The translations under genes and the position numbers were made by a program. Source: a virus (taxonomy: Duplodnaviria > Heunggongvirae > Uroviricota > Caudoviricetes). From it: a stretch of 24,754 bases of DNA. The DNA is taken from IMG/VR virus record IMGVR_UViG_2671181064_000003; one strand, written 5' to 3'. Positions 1 to 24,754 of the stretch are shown here, piece by piece. The notes beneath the pieces are model-generated. The model did no database searches. It saw nothing but the letters and a program-made list of their open reading frames with translations, and was not told the DNA's origin. Positions within the stretch are counted from its first letter, which is position 1; every line of letters begins with the position of its first letter.

Positions 1-83
1 AGGGACAGCTGATAGAAACAGAAGCCACTGGAGCACCTCAAAAACACCATCATACACTAAATCAGTAAGTTGGCAGCATCACC
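1..83 (-). mobile_element. IS1: IS1 terminal fragment (left inverted-repeat end), element continues off the window to the left
   Basis: Reverse complement of 1-83 reads GGTGATGCTGCCAACTTACTGATTTAGTGTATGATGGTGTTTTTGAGGTGCTCCAGTGGCTTCTGTTTCTATCAGCTGTCCCT, which I recognise as the IS1 left end including its terminal inverted repeat (61-83). GC content drops sharply from position 84. Confidence 0.85.
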
Positions 84-402
84 AGCCTTCTTGAGGCTAC
101 CACCTGTTTTCAGGTGTCATTCAGACGTGATTTGCCCCAGATTGGGAAAGCACGCTTTTTTCTCAGCTATCGTCCTCTTATTTTGCCGTTACATTTCTTT
201 TTGCATTCTAATGATTAATTTACAATAATAATATCGGTAATTATTGAGTAATAATAAATTAATTATTGCAAATGTAATTTAATTCCATCTTCGCGTTATA
301 TTCCAATCTTTAATCTCCGCATGGAACAAGTTGCATGCGTGACTATATTAAGACGACTTATAACCACCAAAACATTTGCTTTGCAAGCAAAAACAGTGAC
401 CA

Positions 403-431
403 TTGACTCTAAGAAAATTCCGATCTATTGT
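403..431 (+). promoter_or_regulatory. Candidate sigma70 promoter (TTGACT-N17-TATTGT) upstream of the small ORF
   Basis: TTGACT at 403-408, 17-nt spacer, TATTGT at 426-431. The region is AT-rich, so a chance match is plausible. Confidence 0.2.
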
Positions 432-465
432 TAGGGTCATCAAAGTTACTTAACAGTATTCCGAA

Positions 466-567
466 ATGAAAATACAAAGCAAGCTAATTGTCTTATTAAA
501 CATTATTATTGCATTTATATTATTTGAGCTTTTAGCTCAAAAATTTGGTTTGAGTACATTATTTTAA
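466..567 (+). CDS. Hypothetical 33-aa hydrophobic peptide (MKIQSKLIVLLNIIIAFILFELLAQKFGLSTLF), possible small membrane protein
   Basis: ATG at 466, TAA at 565-567, translated by hand. One predicted transmembrane-like hydrophobic stretch. No convincing Shine-Dalgarno sequence. Below the 60-aa cutoff of the ORF track. Confidence 0.2.
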   Translation: MKIQSKLIVLLNIIIAFILFELLAQKFGLSTLF

Positions 568-713
568 AGCAAGATAAACAATATCGGGCACTCTAGTTTT
601 TATAATTAACAATTAAACGTCCATAAAATGTTATTTACTTTTCTTCGCTATTGTCATATCTTAATATAGTGGCTTACGCCACTCTACTTTCATCACATTT
701 TGTACGTTTATGT

Positions 714-746
714 ACTCGCCATGAAGCTCTTTCATGGCGATTTTTT
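714..746 (+). terminator. Rho-independent terminator candidate, plus-strand orientation
   Basis: Perfect 10-bp stem TCGCCATGAA (716-725), loop GCTCT, stem TTCATGGCGA (731-740), followed by TTTTTT (741-746). Confidence 0.6.
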
Positions 747-832
747 ATTCTTAATCCAAGAACATACTCCCTACCTATAGCAAAATCACTTTTTTAACAA
801 AAGAATAACGTATTTAGGTAATCATTACGAAT

Positions 833-1414
833 TTACCCTATAGGTGCTACTGGCCATTCAATATCCGGTGCAGTTGATGTATCAACACGGTTCAGCAACA
901 CCCGATACTTTTTCCAAGCTTCCAGCAACAAGGTTTCTTTCTCCGTTGCGATCTCCAGATCCACAGCATCCTGAAGCGGCGCTATATGCTCACTGGCTAC
1001 CTGCATCAGGCTGTTTTTTGTTTCTTCCGCCTCCCGGATCCGGAACAGTTTTTCTGCTTCCGTATCCTTCACCCAGGCTGTGCCGTTCCACTTCTGAAAC
1101 TCCCCTTCCGGGGATAACCAGGTGACATTTTCCGGTAATGAGCCGAGTTCAGAAATAAATAACGCGTCGCCGGAAGCCACGTCATAAACCGTTTTACCCC
1201 GATGATCTTCAACGAGATGCCACGATGACTCATCACTGTTGAAAACAGCCACGAAACCAGCCGGAATATCTGGCGGTGCAATATCGGTACTGTTTGCAGG
1301 CAGACCTGTATGAGGCGGAATATATGCGTCACCTTCACCAATAAATTCATTAGTTCCGGCCAGCAGGTTATAAATTTTTATGGTCCGTGCTTGTTCACTC
1401 ATTCTGAATGCCAT
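833..1414 (-). CDS. tfa: Tail fiber assembly protein Tfa
   Basis: 193-aa ORF ([24 protein letters not shown]...) near-identical to lambda Tfa as I recall it. Start overlaps the stf stop (TAATG). Confidence 0.93.
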
Positions 1415-4270
1415 TATGCGAGCCTCACAATATAGTTAAATGCGATGTTTTTGACGGTGTTTTCCGCGTTACCAGCAGCGTTAACGGTGATGGTGTGTCC
1501 ATGTGAACCAATCGCAACAGAGTGCGTATGAGCACCAATACCGACAGTATGCGCGTGTGCACCCGCAGATGCTGCTGTGCCGGACAGTGAGTGTGTATGG
1601 TTTCCTTCTGAAGATGATTTACCTACCCATTGGGAGGTGCCACTGGTTAATGAGCCACTGATACCAACCTGATTAGTCCCGCTAACTTGAGTACTCCCTG
1701 CCGGAAACATTCCAGTAGGTTGACTCCCGCTATTCGTTCTGGGCCCAGTCTGACTATGTTGGTGGGCCCCAGCTGAACTTGTAGAGCCGCTCAGACTGTG
1801 CGTATGCGCCCCGGTGTTATTCGTGGATTTAGTGCCGTAATCAAACGACGATGTGGTTTTCGTCCCCAAATCCGTACTGGATGCGCTGGCGCTGTGGGTG
1901 TGCGATTTAATGCCATCCTGTTCCTGAGACAATACGGCACGACCACTGGCGGGCTTGCCCTTAATCGTCCAGCCACGCATATCAGGGATCACGCCTGACG
2001 GATAAGCGGCTGCAAGTTTCGGGTAAGCAGATTTGTCAAAAGTCTGCCCCTGCATCAGGGCATAACCAGACGGAACGGTATCTGATGGCCACGGGATTGG
2101 TGCACCGACTGGATAAAACTCTGCAGGAGGATGAGCCGAGGTGTAAAGCTGCGCCCACGGCGACCAGTTTGCGTCGGTCGTATCCCGTCGTGAACGAATA
2201 AATGCCGGAGCATGAGCACCGCTTGTACCACTCCAGCCGATGAGTAACTCACCTTCGCCAACGGCTGTCATCCCTTTCAGGTGAATGATATTTCCATACG
2301 CTGTTGGATATCCGTTGTTATACACCTCGTATAACTCAAGACCTGCTGCCCCCTGCGTATTGTCTGTCAGCGCGGCTACCCGACCTTTTGAAGCCAGATT
2401 AACTGATGATACTGCTGTTCCACCTGACGGTAGCGCCCCGATCTCTGATGCCGTTGGCTTATTTCTGGAGTTATAGTCCCTTCGCCAGCCAGGTGAATAA
2501 TCTGTTCCGTGATTAATATAGGTAAACTGGGCGTTGGTTGTTCCGCCACCGCTGGATGTGGTCGGAGTGGTAATGCGGATCGTCATCGCTGACTTTATCC
2601 CCATTACTTCAATGACAGCTCCGGCGAGATGAATATTACCGCAGCCAGTATCAGTAATGATTTTATTATTGCCATAAGACCAGGAACCCTTGCACATCCA
2701 GTATGGATGGTTAAATGCTCCCTGAGAATCCAGCCACTCGATAAACTGTGCAGTCGTCCAGTTTCCTGTTGTTGTGCTTACTGACCCACCGAAGGCACGG
2801 CAGGCACCAATATTTTTCGTAAAGGTGTCTTTGCCAGGGATATCCGCACCGTTCTGATCTTTCTGCAGACGTTTCTCAGCATTGTCATTGGCTGCTTTTA
2901 CTGCCTTTGGCGTTGCCGCCAGCGTTTCAGACGTGCTGTTGGTCGCGCTGCTTAGCTGGATTATCCCTTTCTGTGCTGTCGTTGCATCCTGTGCGGTGTA
3001 TTTCCCGTTAGCCAGGTCATACGCGGCCTTAACGGCTTTTNNNNNNNNNNNCTGCTGACGCCTGTCTGGTCGCCTCATCTTTTGAAGCAGACGCCGATGA
3101 TGCCGATGACGCCGCCGAACTGGCGGACGATGCGGCAGCCGTTTTTGAGGATTCTGCACGGGTTTCCGACGCTTTCGCGTTCGTTTCGGATGTCTTCGCT
3201 GCGGAAGCTGACCTCGCTGCTGCCGTGGCCTGCTCAGTGGCTTCGCCAGCCTTCGTTGTGGCTGTTGAAGCGGATGATGCGGCGCTTTCTGCCGATTTTC
3301 CGGCGGCGGTGGCACTGGCTGAGGCCTGCCCGGCACTTGTTGACGCGGCGCTGGCAGACGACGCAGCCGCTGTTTTTGAGCCTGCCGCAGCTGAGGCACT
3401 CTGTCCCGCTGCCGTTTCAGAAGACCTGGCGTTCGTCTCGGACGTTTTGGCCGCCTTCGCAGAATTTGCAGCCGCCGTCGCCGAGGAAGCTGCGCTACTG
3501 GCGCTTGATGATGCGTTCGTTTCTGATGATTTTGCCGCCTCTTTTGAAGCCGACGCATCCCGGGCTGAGGTGGCAGCTTCTGACGCTTTCGTGGTCGCGG
3601 TGGATGCAGAAGTGGCTGCTGATTGTTGTGACGCTGCCGCATTCGTTTCTAACGTTTTCGCCGCACCGGCACTGGTAGCCGCCGCGCTTTTTGAGGACTC
3701 TGCAGCGGCAGCACTTTTTGAGGCTTCAGTGGCCTTTGTTGATGCCGTTCCTGCGCTGGAAGACGCTGACTGAGCCGACGAAGCGGCCTGTCCGGCTGAC
3801 GTGCTGGCTGCACGTGCTGAATCTGCAGCATCAGTCGCATGGGTTGCCGCCTCACGGGCTGATGTGCTGGCATCGCTGGCTGATTTCTTCGCGGCTGCCG
3901 TGTTCTGTGCCACCGCGGACGCGTTACGCGCCACCTCTTCCACCATCAGCTCAAAACGGCGCAGTGCCTCCGGACGGGCATCATCCTCCGTCATGGCACC
4001 GAGAAAATCATTCAGCGTACCGGGTCGGGAATCTTCATACACGGTGATGGTCCCGGCATGTGACGGCGGGAATCCTTCCACCAACAGAATAACGCTGTAC
4101 TGACCGTACTCAACGTCCATGCTGTAACGCCCGGCTTCATCCGGATTTTCTGAGGCCAGCGTGTTCACCACCACCGTGGTGCTGTTACGTTTTGCTTTCA
4201 GCTGGATTGTGCAGTTCTGTACCGGTTTTCCTGTGCCGTCTTTCAGTACACCTGAAATCTTTACTGCCAT
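1414..4270 (-). CDS. stf: Side tail fiber protein Stf, interrupted by an assembly gap at 3041-3051
   Basis: N-terminal part (ORF 3029..4276, [20 protein letters not shown]...) and C-terminal part (lower portion of ORF 1414..3642, ending ...[38 protein letters not shown]) both match lambda Stf. ATG at 4268-4270 preceded by GGGGTG. The apparent frame change across the N-run is attributed to the gap. Confidence 0.85.
3041..3051. other. Assembly gap (11 N) inside stf
   Basis: Run of N in the sequence. Confidence 1.
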
Positions 4271-4334: not shown

Positions 4335-4792
4335 TCAGAATTTATAACCGACACCCACGATGAAACCGTCAGTGCGCCAGAGACGTGTTGCTGTGGCGAC
4401 CGTCATCACTTCCGGTCAGCACATCGTGCGTTTTCCCCTTATTGTCAGTTACGCGGATATAATCCCCGGAAAAAGTCGACACACGGCTGTAAGCCACACC
4501 CGCCATCGCATACGCGCTGAACCATTCATTCACGCGCACAGACGGCCCCGCCATCACGCTGAACCAGCGGTTACGCACGGAATCTTCATGCCAGCGGGTA
4601 TCGCTGTAACGGGTCAGCTGGCGATTCTTGTCTCCTGCATAGCTGAATGACGTCACCAGCCCCAGCGTATCCGTAAACTCATAACGGTATTTCACGTTAA
4701 TCCCGTTCAGATCATCACTGCCGGGAACGTTGGTCCGGGCATGAAGATACCCCGCGCTCAGCGTGGACTGATGTTCAGACGCCCATGCAGGC
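4335..4792 (-). pseudogene. lom: Lom/Ail-family outer-membrane protein gene, 5' end lost in the gap and reading frame broken near the 3' end
   Basis: Frame of ORF 4369..4695 reads ...GINVKYRYEFTDTLG...SAYAMAGVAYSRV... (Lom-like) and stays open up to the N-run. The conserved C-terminus WRTDGFIVGVGYKF-stop (ending 4335) is in a different frame, and the gene is about 27 codons shorter than lambda lom between those two segments. Confidence 0.6.
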
Positions 4793-4838
4793 NNNNNNNN
4801 NNNNNNNNNNNNNNNNNNNNNNNNNNNNNNNNNNNNNN
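4793..4838. other. Assembly gap (46 N) spanning the J 3' end, the J-lom intergenic region and the lom 5' end
   Basis: Run of N. By collinearity with lambda roughly 400 bp are expected here. Confidence 1.
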
Positions 4839-7800
4839 AAAAATAATGGGCGGAATAATAATCTGGCGGTCAAAGTTATGATCATCGCTTATGGTGACTG
4901 TAACCGTCCCGTTTGGTGTTTCCGTGTTACCCCACGTACCAGCCTGTTTCGGAAATGATTTGGATACAGCTTTAACGAAGTCACCTCTGACCTGAGTCGC
5001 CTCCAGCATGCCCTTAATCGTACAGTTTTCATTTACCGTGACATTGTTGAGCGTCCCGGCGTTCGCATTCACACTGCCACTGATATCCGCATTTTTAGCG
5101 GTCAGCTTTCCGTCCGGAGTCAGGGAAAATGCCGATGGATTTCCACCGCTGGTAATGGTGGGGGCCGTCAGGCGTTTCAGGAACACGTCGTTCATGAATA
5201 TCTGATCGCCCTGACCAACAAACATCGGTTTTGTGTTGCCATTCGCAGGATTAACCATCGCAATCCTGTCCGCCGCCAGCAGCACCTGACTCTGCATGCC
5301 GTCAGGGGTGTTCTCAATACCGGCACCAATACCCGCGATATAAAGGCGTCCGTCCTGCATCTGCTGCAGCTTCACAGCCCACATGCTGTTCAGGTTATTA
5401 TTTGTATCAACCTGAACCTTCTGTATCTGCTGAATTGCCGCACTCTGGTCTTCCAGTTTCTTATTGACGGTCTGCGTGATTTCATTGCTGACATCCGTAA
5501 TGGACGTCCTGATTTCAGCCAGGTCAGGCGCAAGCTGACCGTTATCAATCTGCGTCCACAGCTCCTGAGCCAGATGGGTTTTCCCTATCTCGCCTTTGAA
5601 AAAATCCAGATAACCGGATGCATCATCACTCGGCTGACCAACAGCCTCCACGAATGCCGATTTGCCAACGGTGTTCACACTGCGGATATAAAAGTAATAA
5701 TCATGGCCCGGTTTGATATTGATACTGGCGGCTATCCAGTACAGCGCCGTGCCAAGATAGCGTGCTGTGGTTTCAACCTGCCTGATATCCGCAATCCGCT
5801 TTTCCGAGAACCAGAACTCAAACTGTACCGTCGGATCATAAACCGCAAGATGCGGCGTGGCGGTTATCTGAAAATAGCCCGGCGTCAGCTCAATCCGCGA
5901 CAGCGCTGCCGGTGCGGCAATCCGGAACGATACCGACGCCGGATCGCCCTGCTGCCCCCACGCATTTACTGCCCGGACTGTCAGCCTGTAGTTCCCCAGC
6001 GCCAGTTGTGTGAAGCGGTAAGTGGTTTCCGTCGTCCGGGCCGTGCTGACCAGCCGCTCACTGCCGTCATCCGCTGTTACGGTCAGACGGAGCAGGAAGC
6101 TCACGCCCTTCACCACCTTCGGCGTGTCCCAGCGCGCCAGCACCTGATATTCCCCGCTGTCTGCGGTGACTTCGGCAGTCAGGTGCTGCACCGCTGGCGG
6201 CGTGACACCATTCACCGTGCCGCTCTGGTCGCCGTCAAAGTGCGCCCCGTTATCCACGATGGCTTCTTTTTCCGGCACATGCTGCACGGCGGTGATGGCA
6301 TACGTGCCGTCGTCGTTCTCACGGATACTCACGCAGCGGAACAATCGCTGGTGCAGCGTCGGCAGCTTCAGCCCCCACACGCTGTATTCAGCAACACCGT
6401 CAGGAACACGGCTCACTTTTACCTTCACGCCGTCGGTGACGGACTGGACCTCCACGCTGACCGGATTCCCCTGCCCGTCAACCAGGCTTATCAGCGTGGT
6501 GCCGGAGGATGGCAGCGTGATTTCACGGTCGAGCGTCAGCGTCCGGGTCTGGCTGTTCACCGCCAGCACGCGCCCGCCGGTGCGGATACCGGCATAGTCA
6601 TCATCGCAGATTTCAATGACATCGCCCGGTACATGACGAAGCCCTTCAGCACCCACGCTGAAATCCACGGTCTGCGTCTCCAGCAGTTCCGTTTTAATCA
6701 GCCACAGCCCGGCGCGGTGTGCCTGCCCCCGGCTGGTACAGCCAAAGGCATCCATCTTCGTGACGTTACGACCGTAACGGGCAATGGCCTGCGTATCCTC
6801 CACAAGCTCTGTCGCCGTCTCCCAGCCGTTATCCGGGTCAATCCAGTTCACCTCAACGGCATTATGGCGGTCTTTCAGGGCGCTGAAACTGTAGCGGAAC
6901 GGCGCGCCATCATCCGGCATCACCACATTACTGCGGTTATAGGCCCACACCTTATCCGACTGTCGGTCCTGCACGAACGTCNNNNNNNNNNNNNNNNNNN
7001 NNNNNNNNNNNNNNNNNNNNNNNGCGTCTGCCCGTTCCATACCGGCATACAGCGCATCGCCGAGCAGAAATCACTGAGCACATCCCACGCCTTGCGCTGT
7101 GTGGTCAGCCAGGCATTACAGGTGATGCGCGGCTCCGTGCTGCCAAAGCCGTCCGGCACCGACTGGTCACAGTACTGGCCGATGACATACAGCGCCCATT
7201 TATCCACATCTGCCGCACCAAGACGTTTCCCCATGCCATAGCGCGGATGGGTCAGCATATCCCACAGACACCAGGCCATGTTGTTGCTGTATGCCGGTTT
7301 TAACGTTCCGTCCCAGATACCGCTGTATTGCCGCGTCTGCGGATTATAGTTCGACGGCACCTGCAGAATGCGCCCGCGAAGATGATAATTACGGCTCACC
7401 TGCTGGCTGCCGAACTGCTCCGAATCCACCTGTACGCCGACCAGTGCCGTGTTCGGGTAGCACTGTTTCACATCGATGATTTCGGTGTATGACGACCAGA
7501 GCGTTTTGTTCTGCAGCTGGTCTGTGGTGCTGTCCGGCGTCATTCTGCGCATCCGGATATTAAACGGGCGCGGCGGCAGGTTATCCACCACCACCGAGGC
7601 CAGATACTGCGAGGTGGTTTTGCCCTTAATGGTGATGTCTTTTTCCGTCACCCAGCCACCGTTACGCTGTATCTGAACCAGCAGGCGAACTTCAGACGGA
7701 TTCCTGTCTCCCTTTGAGGTGGTTTCCACCAGTGCCTGTACACCGAAGGTAAAACGCAGTCGGTCAATGTTTGCCGACGTGATGGTCCGGGTGATCGGCG

Positions 7801-22861: not shown

Positions 22862-22887
<26 letters not shown>

Positions 22888-23407
22888 TCAGCAACCCCGG
22901 TATCAGTTCATCCAGCGCGGCTGCTTTGTTCATGGCTTTGATGATATCCCGTTTCAGGAAATCAACATGTCGGTTTTCCAGTTCCGGAAAACGCCGCTGC
23001 ACCGACAGGGGGATCCCGTCGAGAATACTGGCAATTTCACCTGCGATCCGCGACAGCACGAAAGTACAGAATGCGGTTTCCACCACTTCAGCGGAGTCTC
23101 TGGCATTTTTCAGCTCCTGTGCGTCGGCCTGCGCACGCGTAAGTCGATGGCGTTCGTACTCAATAGTCCCTGGCTGGAGATCTGTCTCGCTGGCCTGCCG
23201 CAGTTCTTCAACTTCCCGGCGCAGCTTTTCGTTCTCAATTTCAGCATCCCTTTCGGCATACCATCTTATAACGGCGGCAGAGTCATAAAGCACCTCATTA
23301 CCCTTGCCACCGCCTCGCAGAACGGGCATTCCCTGTTCCTGCCAGTTCTGAATGGTACGGATACTCGCACCGAAAATGTCAGCCAGCTGCTTTTTGTTGA
23401 CTTCCAT
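22862..23407 (-). CDS. Nu1: Terminase small subunit Nu1
   Basis: 181-aa ORF MEVNKKQLADIFGASIRTIQNWQEQGMPVLRGGGKGNEVLYDSAAVIRWYAERDAEIENEKLRREVEELRQ... matching lambda gpNu1. 3' end overlaps the A start. Confidence 0.95.
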
Positions 23408-23584
23408 TGTTCATTCCACGGACAAAAACAGAGAAAGGAAACGACAGAGGCCAAAAAGCCCGTTTTCAGCACCTGTCGTTTCCTTTCTTTTCAGGGGGTG
23501 TTTTAAATAAAAACATTAGGTTACGGCGAAGAAGAACGGAAACGCCTTAAACCGGAAAATTGTCATAAATAGCGAAAACCCGCG
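23408..23584 (-). promoter_or_regulatory. cosB region (terminase R-element and IHF-binding region) between cosN and Nu1
   Basis: Reverse complement is nearly identical to the lambda left end as I recall it (…CGCGGGTTTTCGCTATTTATGA…GGCGTTTCCGTTCTTCTTCG…GAAAGGAAACGACAGGTGCTG…CTGTCGTTTCCTTTCTCTG…), including the GTTTCC-type repeats. Confidence 0.7.
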
Positions 23585-23596
23585 CGCCTTCCGCCC
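23585..23596 (-). other. cosN (cohesive-end site), placed by homology; predicted 12-nt overhang GGGCGGAAGGCG versus lambda GGGCGGCGACCT
   Basis: Flanks align base-for-base with lambda (…CAGGTTACG | cohesive end | CGCGGGTTTTCGC…). Gene coordinates from Nu1 to I map to lambda coordinates with a constant offset that places lambda position 1 at window 23596. Confidence 0.65.
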
Positions 23597-23632
23597 CGTA
23601 ACCTGTCGGATCGCCGGAAAGGACCCGCAAAA

Positions 23633-23647
23633 TGATAATAATTATCA
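23633..23647. promoter_or_regulatory. Perfect 7-1-7 palindrome TGATAAT-A-ATTATCA, Fur-box-like candidate operator
   Basis: 15-bp perfect inverted repeat read directly from the sequence. It matches the 7-1-7 description of Fur sites (TGATAATnATTATCA). Lies ~150 bp upstream of the RHH-like ORF and ~40 bp from cosN. Confidence 0.35.
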
Positions 23648-23795
23648 TCTACATGTCACAACGTGCATCTACGCCATCAAACCACGTCAAATAATCAATT
23701 ATGACGCAGGTATCGTATTAATTGATCTGCATCAACTTAACGTAAAAACAACTTCAGACAATACAAATCAGCGACACTGAATACAGGGCAACCTC

Positions 23796-24029
23796 ATGTC
23801 AACGAAGAACAGAACCCGCAGAACAACAACCCGCAACATCCGCTTTCCTAACCAAATGATTGAACAAATTAACATCGCTCTTGTTCAAAAAGGGTCCGGG
23901 AATTTCTCAGCCTGGGTCATTGAAGCCTGCCGCCGGAGACTGTGCTCAGAAAAAAGAGTTTCGCCTGAAGCAAACAAAGAAAAGAGTGACATTACTGAAT
24001 TGCTCAGAAAACAGGTTAGACCAGATTGA
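23796..24029 (+). CDS. Small basic protein with a ribbon-helix-helix-like (Arc/MetJ/CopG-type) motif, unknown function
   Basis: 77-aa ORF MSTKNRTRRTTTRNIRFPNQMIEQINIALVQKGSGNFSAWVIEACRRRL... The segment RNIRFPNQMIEQINIALVQKGSGNFSAWVIEACRR fits the strand-helix-helix pattern. Weak ribosome-binding site. Confidence 0.55.
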   Translation: MSTKNRTRRTTTRNIRFPNQMIEQINIALVQKGSGNFSAWVIEACRRRLCSEKRVSPEANKEKSDITELLRKQVRPD

Positions 24030-24086
24030 AGCAATTTAGATAATCGTGCAGACTACGCCCCCTCATATCACATGGAAGGTACTACA

Positions 24087-24497
24087 ATGGCTCAGGTTGC
24101 CATTTTTAAACAAATATTCGATAAAGTGCGAAATAATTTAAACTATCACTGGTTTTATTCTGAACTAAAACGTCACAATGTCTCACATTACATTTACTAT
24201 TTAGCCACAGAGAATATTCATCTTGTTCTTGAAAACGATAATACGGTTTTAATAAAAGGACAGGGTAAGGTTGTAAATGTAAGATTTTCAAAAAATAAAT
24301 GCCTTATAGAAGCCACCTTAAAAGGATTCAAATCAGGAGAGTTATCATTTTACGAATACAGGAAAAATCTTGCTACAGCAGGGGTTTTCAGATGGATTAC
24401 AAATATCCACGAAAACAAAAGGTATTACTATACCTTTGATAATTCATTACTCTTTACTGAGAACATACAGAACACTACACAAATATTTCCGCACTAA
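24087..24497 (+). CDS. YbcV-like protein (DUF1398 family), unknown function
   Basis: ORF 24072..24497 contains [58 protein letters not shown]...[26 protein letters not shown], which resembles E. coli DLP12 YbcV as I recall it. Start placed at the internal ATG (24087) giving 136 aa. Confidence 0.65.
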
Positions 24498-24754
24498 ATC
24501 ATAACGTCCGGTTTCTTCCGTGCCAGAACCGGACTCGCTGGCATGATGAAATATGTGTACCCGGTAACCCCGGTGTGCATCGTTTTTGATTATTCCCGCA
24601 CACTCGCGCAGAAGGAGTTCCCCGTCGGGCTACGGTCTCTGTTAATACGGGAATACGGCGACGATTGGATTTGCCCCTATATTTCCAGACATCTGTTATC
24701 ACTTAACCCATTACAAGCCCGCTGCCGCAGATATTCCCGTGGCGAGCGATAACC

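Follow-up and report, generated by a model that had tools for sequence, protein, structure and literature searches.

A moron-like cassette beside the tail fiber assembly gene of lambdoid Escherichia coli prophages with a conserved open reading frame for a predicted YncL-like membrane peptide

The virus record IMGVR_UViG_2671181064_000003 of IMG/VR (Caudoviricetes; 24,754 nucleotides, the whole of which is called the window here) contains, close to its start, an adenine- and thymine-rich (AT-rich) gap at positions 84-832. The gap lies between the end of an IS1 insertion sequence (1-83) and the tail fiber assembly gene tfa (833-1414, minus strand), as an earlier note made from the sequence alone had described. 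It is a composite of three parts, the main one being an accessory cassette (~255-832, plus strand, convergent with tfa) with an open reading frame (ORF) of 33 amino acids (aa) that evolves under purifying selection. From its sequence we conclude that this ORF is a real gene and a diverged paralogue, not an orthologue, of yncL, which encodes a small stress-induced membrane protein of Escherichia coli. Probably the cassette is a phage moron. Its product would be a YncL-like membrane peptide whose synthesis the RNA flanks regulate, unless these flanks themselves act as a small RNA (sRNA).

Relatives of the cassette are frequent in E. coli. Window positions 255-832 were found in 831 of the 5426 complete E. 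coli genomes (~15%), at 77-99.7% identity, and on 48-50 IMG/VR contigs; the whole 749 bp recurs at 98.7% identity or more in 280 of these genomes. The copies form five lineages, with identities to the window of ~99% (A), ~95.5% (B), ~90% (C), ~85% (D), and ~77% (E). Lineage D is a recombinant of C and E, with its breakpoint beside the terminator described below. Scans of IMG/VR and of JGI metagenomes returned the same five lineages only, and no relatives were found in other species among the GTDB species representatives. Among 50,697 phage records, blastn (11-base words) matched four, namely mEp332, PhiR70_1, and ev099 (two accessions), and lambda has no nucleotide match to 84-832 in that search. 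The alternatives posed earlier, conserved b-region sequence of lambda or strain-specific DNA, both fail: the region is absent from lambda, yet common to 831-1343 of the 5426 E. coli genomes. NCBI annotation places zero features under any of the E. coli genome matches.

The evidence for a gene comes from comparison of these lineages. The small ORF MKIQSKLIVLLNIIIAFILFELLAQKFGLSTLF (466-567, plus strand), predicted to encode a single-pass membrane peptide of the YncL type, has 33 codons in each of them. Relative to lineage E it carries 18 substitutions, 7, 1, and 10 of them at codon positions 1, 2, and 3; 11 are synonymous and 7 nonsynonymous, which gives a ratio of nonsynonymous to synonymous change (pN/pS) of 0.16. 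Relative to lineage C there are five synonymous changes and one nonsynonymous change (pN/pS 0.05). The other two frames of the same interval have stop codons or pN/pS values above 0.3. When the same substitutions were placed at random, an open frame with as few amino acid changes was retained in 0.065% of trials for lineage E and in 1.6% for lineage C. Purifying selection acts on this frame, and the proposal that AT-rich pockets of this kind carry small toxin-like peptides is backed to this extent: a hydrophobic ORF is kept open and selected down to 77% DNA identity. Every other small ORF fails the conservation test. One of them, at 321-434, is annotated in PhiR70_1 and was rejected, its start codon being gone in all other lineages. 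A minus-strand ORF at 661-735 was likewise rejected; it is open only since the region is nearly invariant, and six of the six changes observed in it are nonsynonymous.

The predicted peptide resembles YncL from end to end. It matches the NCBIfam model NF000537 (YncL) over residues 1-28 (E = 1.3e-5, 25.0 bits), an equivalog model with a curated cut-off of 35 bits on which YncL of E. coli K-12 scores 68.6 bits. A second variant of the peptide scores 23.5 bits (E = 3.7e-5), and neither the reversed sequence nor any of seven shuffles, run as controls, matched this model. Aligned to YncL from Met1 without gaps, the peptide reaches a score of 60, compared with 20 +/- 4 for shuffles (z ~10; 0 of 20,000 reach 60) and 13-29 for a set of ten other small membrane peptides of E. 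coli. Identity is 35%, and 10 columns are invariant between the peptide and YncL, including S5, N12, L19-F20, and F27-G28.

YncL (b4598) of E. coli K-12 has 31 aa and is an inner-membrane protein induced by stress. The prophage peptide shares its size class, a short basic N terminus, a hydrophobic span of 18-19 residues, and the motif [KR]FG, and both are encoded in short, monocistronic-looking units. The peptide differs from YncL in being two residues longer at the C terminus and in having a charged residue, acidic or basic, at position 21. The loci differ as well: K-12 yncL sits between patD and ortT and is preceded by a Shine-Dalgarno sequence, whereas the peptide gene is prophage-borne beside tfa and has none, and the RNA sequences flanking the two are unrelated. 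It is with this prophage location, the missing Shine-Dalgarno sequence, and the unrelated flanks that the peptide is best described as a paralogue rather than an orthologue. Production of YncL causes sub-lethal membrane depolarization, nucleoid condensation, and reduced protein synthesis (PMC12542507), and YncL is a substrate of the RseP protease (PMC10470546). The yncL transcript of Salmonella, the expression of which depends on sigma-S, was first catalogued as the sRNA STnc1110 (PMC5437024). Prophages and YncL are also connected by RNA interaction by ligation and sequencing (RIL-seq), in which KilS, an sRNA of the Rac prophage, pairs with the host yncL messenger RNA (mRNA) (PMC8175672). This pairing ties YncL to prophages a second time, independently of the cassette.

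Signals for expression are recognizable on both sides of the ORF. A candidate promoter (403-431, plus strand) is composed of TTGACT, a 17-nt spacer, and TATTGT; a C directly precedes the -10 element, and the predicted start is at ~438. By consensus scan and alignment, all lineages have an invariant -35 element and either TATTGT or TATCGT as the -10 element. A C in this place is a frequent feature of sigma-S promoters. Downstream lies a strong intrinsic terminator (716-748, plus strand only), with an 11-bp stem (TCGCCATGAAG..CTTTCATGGCGA) followed by a T run. This stem is invariant across lineages except for the apical position, which is G-U or A-U. There is no terminator between the ORF and 716-748, so a transcript of the ORF must include the 180-nt 3' region.

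This 3' region is the best-conserved part of the cassette. Its structured portion (613-748, plus strand) folds with z = -6.6 into a closing stem (614-631/695-710), a local hairpin (669-682, GUGGC-UUAC-GCCAC), and the terminator, and it includes a conserved unpaired stretch, CUCUACUUUCAUCA. Variable positions make up 5-20% of 666-745, compared with 40-70% on both flanks; the most divergent copies in this comparison came from BLAST and not from the pattern search that was used for some loci. The few changes that fall in stems of the region all keep pairing as G-U on the plus strand. Two metagenome contigs carry deviating copies, one in which the start codon of the ORF is ATA and one with a G-to-A mismatch in the terminator stem (contigs L121 and L120); these are rare and are possibly decaying alleles.

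On its right the cassette keeps a single neighbor. The tfa gene, a 193-aa ORF that closes the late operon, carries the annotation of a tail fiber assembly protein in every related record, and its 3' end lies on the opposite strand 90-140 bp past the cassette terminator in 134 of the 136 loci examined. The left limit of the cassette is at ~255, but at ~290 in one lineage, and the left neighbor differs, being an AraC-family regulator gene, sitABCD, or ydfJ. The ydfJ context, which occurs in more than 600 genomes, is a Qin-like prophage in an advanced state of degradation. Lineages B and E have, to the left of the cassette, another 3' fragment of tfa (~95 bp, same orientation; 4900-5000 in locus L005 and 4890-5000 in locus L006); the resulting bracketing by tfa 3' ends hints at transfer of the cassette between tail fiber modules. 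The idea of an invertible DNA segment between inverted repeats was rejected, as each BLAST match is collinear throughout, in one piece, and the neighborhood lacks an invertase gene.

Morons are defined as extra DNA at an operon boundary, with deviating GC content (guanine plus cytosine), its own transcription signals, and a patchy distribution (PMC3594210), and the anatomy of the cassette fits this definition in position, composition, and distribution, with candidate transcription signals. It is extra DNA at a gene boundary in some related phages only, as seen in the four phage records and the 831 E. coli genomes; its GC content is 0.21-0.38, against 0.555 in the structural genes; and it has a strong plus-strand terminator and a conserved promoter-like site, although promoter-like sites are no commoner in the region than in shuffles. 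The closest functional parallel is the gp15 moron of HK97 (Cumby et al. 2012), a small inner-membrane protein derived from host YebO that blocks DNA entry by superinfecting phages (PMC3594210). Like gp15, the predicted peptide is a small single-pass inner-membrane protein, its gene was inserted in the tail gene region of a lambdoid phage with unusual GC content and putative transcription signals of its own, and it appears to originate from a small membrane protein of the host, YebO in the case of gp15 and YncL here. The two are unlike in sequence, with no relation of the peptide to gp15 or YebO, and in placement, as gp15 lies inside the tail operon and the cassette past the last tail fiber gene and convergent with it. 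Superinfection exclusion has been demonstrated for gp15; for the cassette peptide it is a hypothesis drawn from this analogy. The map position, between tail fiber genes and attachment site, is that of the b region of lambda, from which the cassette differs in having no sequence similarity to it.

Under this moron explanation, a lysogen would transcribe the cassette from its own promoter, either the 403-431 site or one near 280, and the YncL-like peptide would insert into the inner membrane as a single-pass protein. There it might lower the membrane potential, as YncL does, or block incoming phage DNA in the manner of HK97 gp15, the YebO-derived moron; in either case the lysogen would acquire a phenotype of stress or of phage exclusion. 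The 3' region and its pairing with an island 5' of the ORF (see below) may set the stability or translation of the mRNA, or the 3' region may be released as a separate small RNA.

Several observations weigh against this explanation. The ORF has no Shine-Dalgarno sequence, one metagenomic copy has ATA in place of the ATG start codon, and promoter calls in the region (6) are not in excess of those in shuffles (4.8 +/- 2.3). The YncL score of the peptide is below the curated cut-off (25 versus 35 bits), and the peptide matches no Pfam, PHROG, or PADLOC family. Gene finders called the exact peptide only twice, without a name, among 15 billion predicted proteins; full-text literature searches likewise returned nothing on the peptide or RNA sequences. 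Diversity is low, with five lineages that are all from E. coli, and statistical power is low because every copy comes from this species and no further lineage exists in the data. The selection tests are not fully independent, because some substitutions are common to several lineages. Finally, covariation in 613-748 is not significant at such low diversity, as 277 of 500 shuffles do equally well.

The conservation of the 3' region raises the question of whether RNA, rather than peptide, is the main product. In this tentative alternative, an RNA of ~135 nt (613-748), made from its own promoter or by processing of the 3' untranslated region, would act on host or phage mRNAs through CUCUACUUUCAUCA, and the peptide would be secondary or the transcript dual-function; as such it is compatible with the moron explanation. 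A -10-like hexamer at 601-606 (plus strand; TATAAT, or TACAAT in the most divergent lineage), retained amid diverged sequence, could drive such a separate RNA, and the closing stem begins exactly at the predicted 5' end. In the 77% lineage the 3' segment is ~4-5% diverged, compared with 18% for the ORF. The strong fold ends in a terminator hairpin with U tail, like that of Hfq-dependent sRNAs, each of three one-sided stem changes yields a G-U pair on the plus strand, and the host yncL transcript itself was first listed as an sRNA. The arrangement of a conserved unpaired stretch, a hairpin, and a terminator with U tail on a horizontally acquired AT-rich island recalls terminator-bearing enterobacterial sRNAs, to which MicC and Esr41 belong and among which some originate from 3' untranslated regions or dual-function transcripts. 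The cassette differs from these known sRNAs in scoring far under the Rfam gathering thresholds: a permissive Rfam search of 84-832 gave only noise (MicC at 22.8 bits versus 90, Esr41 at 15.6 versus 102, and snoRNA matches), and at the gathering thresholds of Rfam 15 the region has no match, the only one in the window being IS009 inside tfa. Also against a main role of RNA are the shuffle-like covariation and the absence of a convincing -35 element upstream of the 601-606 hexamer. Pairing of the 3' element with the ORF start region was rejected, 127 of 500 shuffles being as good. Of the two products that the earlier note had envisaged for the region, the toxin-like small peptide gene is present; the sRNA is possible and unproven, with conservation, fold, and terminator in its favor and neither significant covariation nor an Rfam family to support it.

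A second conserved island, at 322-353 on the plus strand, was found by repeat search to be complementary to 659-692 over 28-30 positions, so that the two arms flank the ORF on either side. The predicted duplex has an energy of -17 to -27 kcal/mol in every lineage, compared with -12 +/- 3 in shuffles. Over the 28 pairs tested, 90.5% of cells are paired, and the covariation score was reached by 0 of 500 shuffles, in a test in which related sequences can beat all shuffles without real structure. At two pairs both partners have changed: G-C has become A-U at 339/673, and the 335/677 mismatch has become G-C in one lineage and A-U in another. The 3' arm overlaps the local hairpin, which makes fold-back and hairpin mutually exclusive. 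On the minus strand the duplex would be just as stable, and substitutions placed at random preserve its stability in 6-81% of trials, by lineage. The sequence comparison is, on balance, no more than suggestive of a 5'-3' fold-back.

Such a fold-back would be at home in a type I toxin-antitoxin-like locus or a hok-like self-locking mRNA, in which a membrane toxin is kept inert by the 322-353/659-692 pairing or by an sRNA that bears one of the arms. We regard this reading, which is also compatible with the moron explanation, as doubtful, and less probable than an sRNA as main product. In its favor, the peptide is small and hydrophobic with a homologue, YncL, that depolarizes membranes; the ORF has no accessible Shine-Dalgarno sequence; and the complementary islands flank it, with compensatory pairs and an alternative, mutually exclusive hairpin. 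Small hydrophobic peptides and a long structured untranslated flank are likewise found at the type I loci Hok, Ldr, Ibs, TisB, and ZorO, and the possible fold-back, for which evidence is weak, is reminiscent of the fbi element of hok mRNA. On the other hand, no antisense or divergent antitoxin RNA was identified, in contrast to hok/sok-type loci, nor any conserved antisense promoter and terminator pair overlapping or flanking the ORF, and the peptide matches neither Hok nor any other toxin family. An antisense RNA from the minus strand (promoter 657-628, weak hairpin 375-391) was rejected, not being conserved in the divergent lineage. The fold-back would further require transcription to start upstream of 322, where no promoter is consistent across lineages, and the equal stability on the minus strand, the frequent preservation of stability by random substitutions, and the permissive nature of the covariation test all count against it.

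More speculative, and somewhat less probable again, is a dual-function locus that combines these elements: a YncL-like effector of membrane depolarization or phage exclusion, a hok-like gated mRNA, and a trans-acting sRNA from the 3' segment that rewires host expression. If true, it would be a small toxin or exclusion module of a new kind, spread with tail fiber genes and present in ~15% of E. coli genomes.

It is improbable that the region is nonfunctional AT-rich DNA, an H-NS-bound spacer or recombination joint in which the open frame and the islands arose by chance or by recent recombination. Such a view agrees with the AT-rich composition, the repeated insertion of IS1, the origin of lineage D by recombination between C and E beside the terminator, and the absence of long ORFs, which composition predicts; moreover, 84-254 does resemble relic and filler. 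It does not account for the preserved frame with its surplus of synonymous changes, nor for the specific end-to-end homology to YncL. An 80-nt near-identical island between flanks that are 40-70% variable would require two very close crossovers, and the cassette has been kept in the strongly degraded ydfJ prophages. Least probable of all is that the structures serve the minus-strand late transcript, as an RNase III site or as a 3' stabilizer of tail fiber mRNA similar to sib retroregulation in lambda, with the ORF incidental: the tfa 3' end does adjoin the cassette in nearly all loci, no minus-strand terminator lies between the tfa stop codon and the cassette, and the long-range duplex is as stable on that strand, but codon-level selection on the plus-strand ORF is left unexplained, the terminator is active in the plus direction only, the one-sided stem changes that are G-U on the plus strand are A-C mismatches on the minus strand, and most lambdoid phages, including lambda, are without the cassette, which is thus not needed for tail fiber expression.

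The remainder of the gap has a different make-up. Positions 84-168 are the right-hand 85 bp of a prophage-end module truncated by IS1, with two short hairpins (AGCCT..AGGCT and CACCTG..CAGGTG). The full module of ~200-330 bp recurs near the outer ends of other, unrelated lambdoid prophages, and in two other genomes (L007 and L008) it lies near uspF and zinT; ~500 further genomes among the 5426 carry the 84-168 piece alone. The left side of the module adjoins a 3' fragment that resembles tRNA-Ser. In the genome of TUM9757 (locus L001) this 3' half is at 5832-5883, ~115 bp to the left of where window position 84 aligns. It receives no ARAGORN call and matches the plastid Rfam family RF04351 at 40.9 bits (threshold 68), a family that we take to lie antisense to trnS. 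Positions 84-168 are probably the relic of an attachment-site arm, and the tRNA-Ser-like fragment suggests a fossil attachment site of a tRNA-Ser-integrating phage inside a prophage that is now at the lambda attachment site. A 55-aa ORF annotated over the module in ev099 was rejected; it is not conserved across module copies because a T run is T6 or T7, depending on the copy, and shifts the frame. Between the module and the cassette, 169-254 is a lineage-specific AT-rich filler (GC ~0.21) not common to the other cassette lineages.

The IS1 end at 1-83 was inserted into the spacer between tfa and the AraC-family regulator gene, and an IS1A-family transposase is annotated under its matches. The junction is identical in many E. 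coli genomes (matches to window 1-1500), and MDR_56 has the same insertion plus a loss of ~550 bp. In TUM9757 the spacer is uninterrupted: the prophage is at the lambda attachment site beside ybhB and bio, and the order is tfa, 1505 bp without annotation, the AraC-family regulator gene, IS remnants, and ybhB. The regulator, a cargo gene past the spacer (4501-5244 of locus L001, minus strand), is found likewise in mEp332, PhiR70_1, and ev099; in the window, IS1 separates its side from the cassette. IS1 has entered the AT-rich spacer at least twice independently, at 83/84 in the window and at a position equivalent to ~711, just upstream of the terminator stem, on IMG/VR contig 2563366948_000001 (L112). 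The prophage end of STEC409 is joined through IS1 to htrE, indicating a rearrangement mediated by IS1.

The sharp drop in GC content described earlier is real, with 0.315 in 84-832 against 0.555 in the rest of the window, and no other 749-bp segment of the sequence is as low (the next lowest elsewhere is 0.368, at ~23.7 kb). Within the gap, GC content ranges from 0.48 (84-168) to 0.21 (169-285 and 466-567). It is also correct that the gap contains no ORF of 60 aa or more, the longest internal one having 48 aa; a 52-aa ORF at 70-228 begins within IS1. The missing long ORF is uninformative, because 73% of mononucleotide shuffles of 84-832 also lack one. The further claim that the lambda morphogenesis map leaves no other sizeable part of the window unexplained does not hold, as a second low-GC stretch (0.37) with nonstructural ORFs occupies ~23,500-24,754, beyond Nu1 (22862-23407, minus strand). 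Two ORFs, of 77 aa (23796-24029) and 141 aa (24072-24497), lie there on the plus strand. Elsewhere, masked runs of N (3041-3051, 4793-4838, and 6982-7023) break the stf and J frames and are the reason for split or out-of-frame ORFs, such as a 742-aa ORF at 1414-3642 with an implausible N-terminal half. The Rfam match to IS009 (RF02111, 218 bits) at 873-1071 on the minus strand is wholly inside the tfa coding sequence; IS009, labelled a candidate sRNA family, was seemingly modelled on tail fiber assembly gene sequence.

Overall, the cassette exposes a gap in annotation. Small membrane proteins are systematically missed, and this peptide is unannotated in all RefSeq records examined, though it is present in the inducible phages mEp332, PhiR70_1, and ev099. 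It is the first phage-borne relative of YncL known to us; host YncL is a stress peptide of still unclear role. A diverged copy under selection on prophages offers a natural experiment on what such a peptide may do, be it membrane depolarization, dormancy, or phage exclusion, and its conserved RNA flanks are candidates for post-transcriptional control. With YncL as the probable source, the cassette would repeat the pattern of HK97 gp15 and YebO, in which phages capture small membrane proteins of their hosts.

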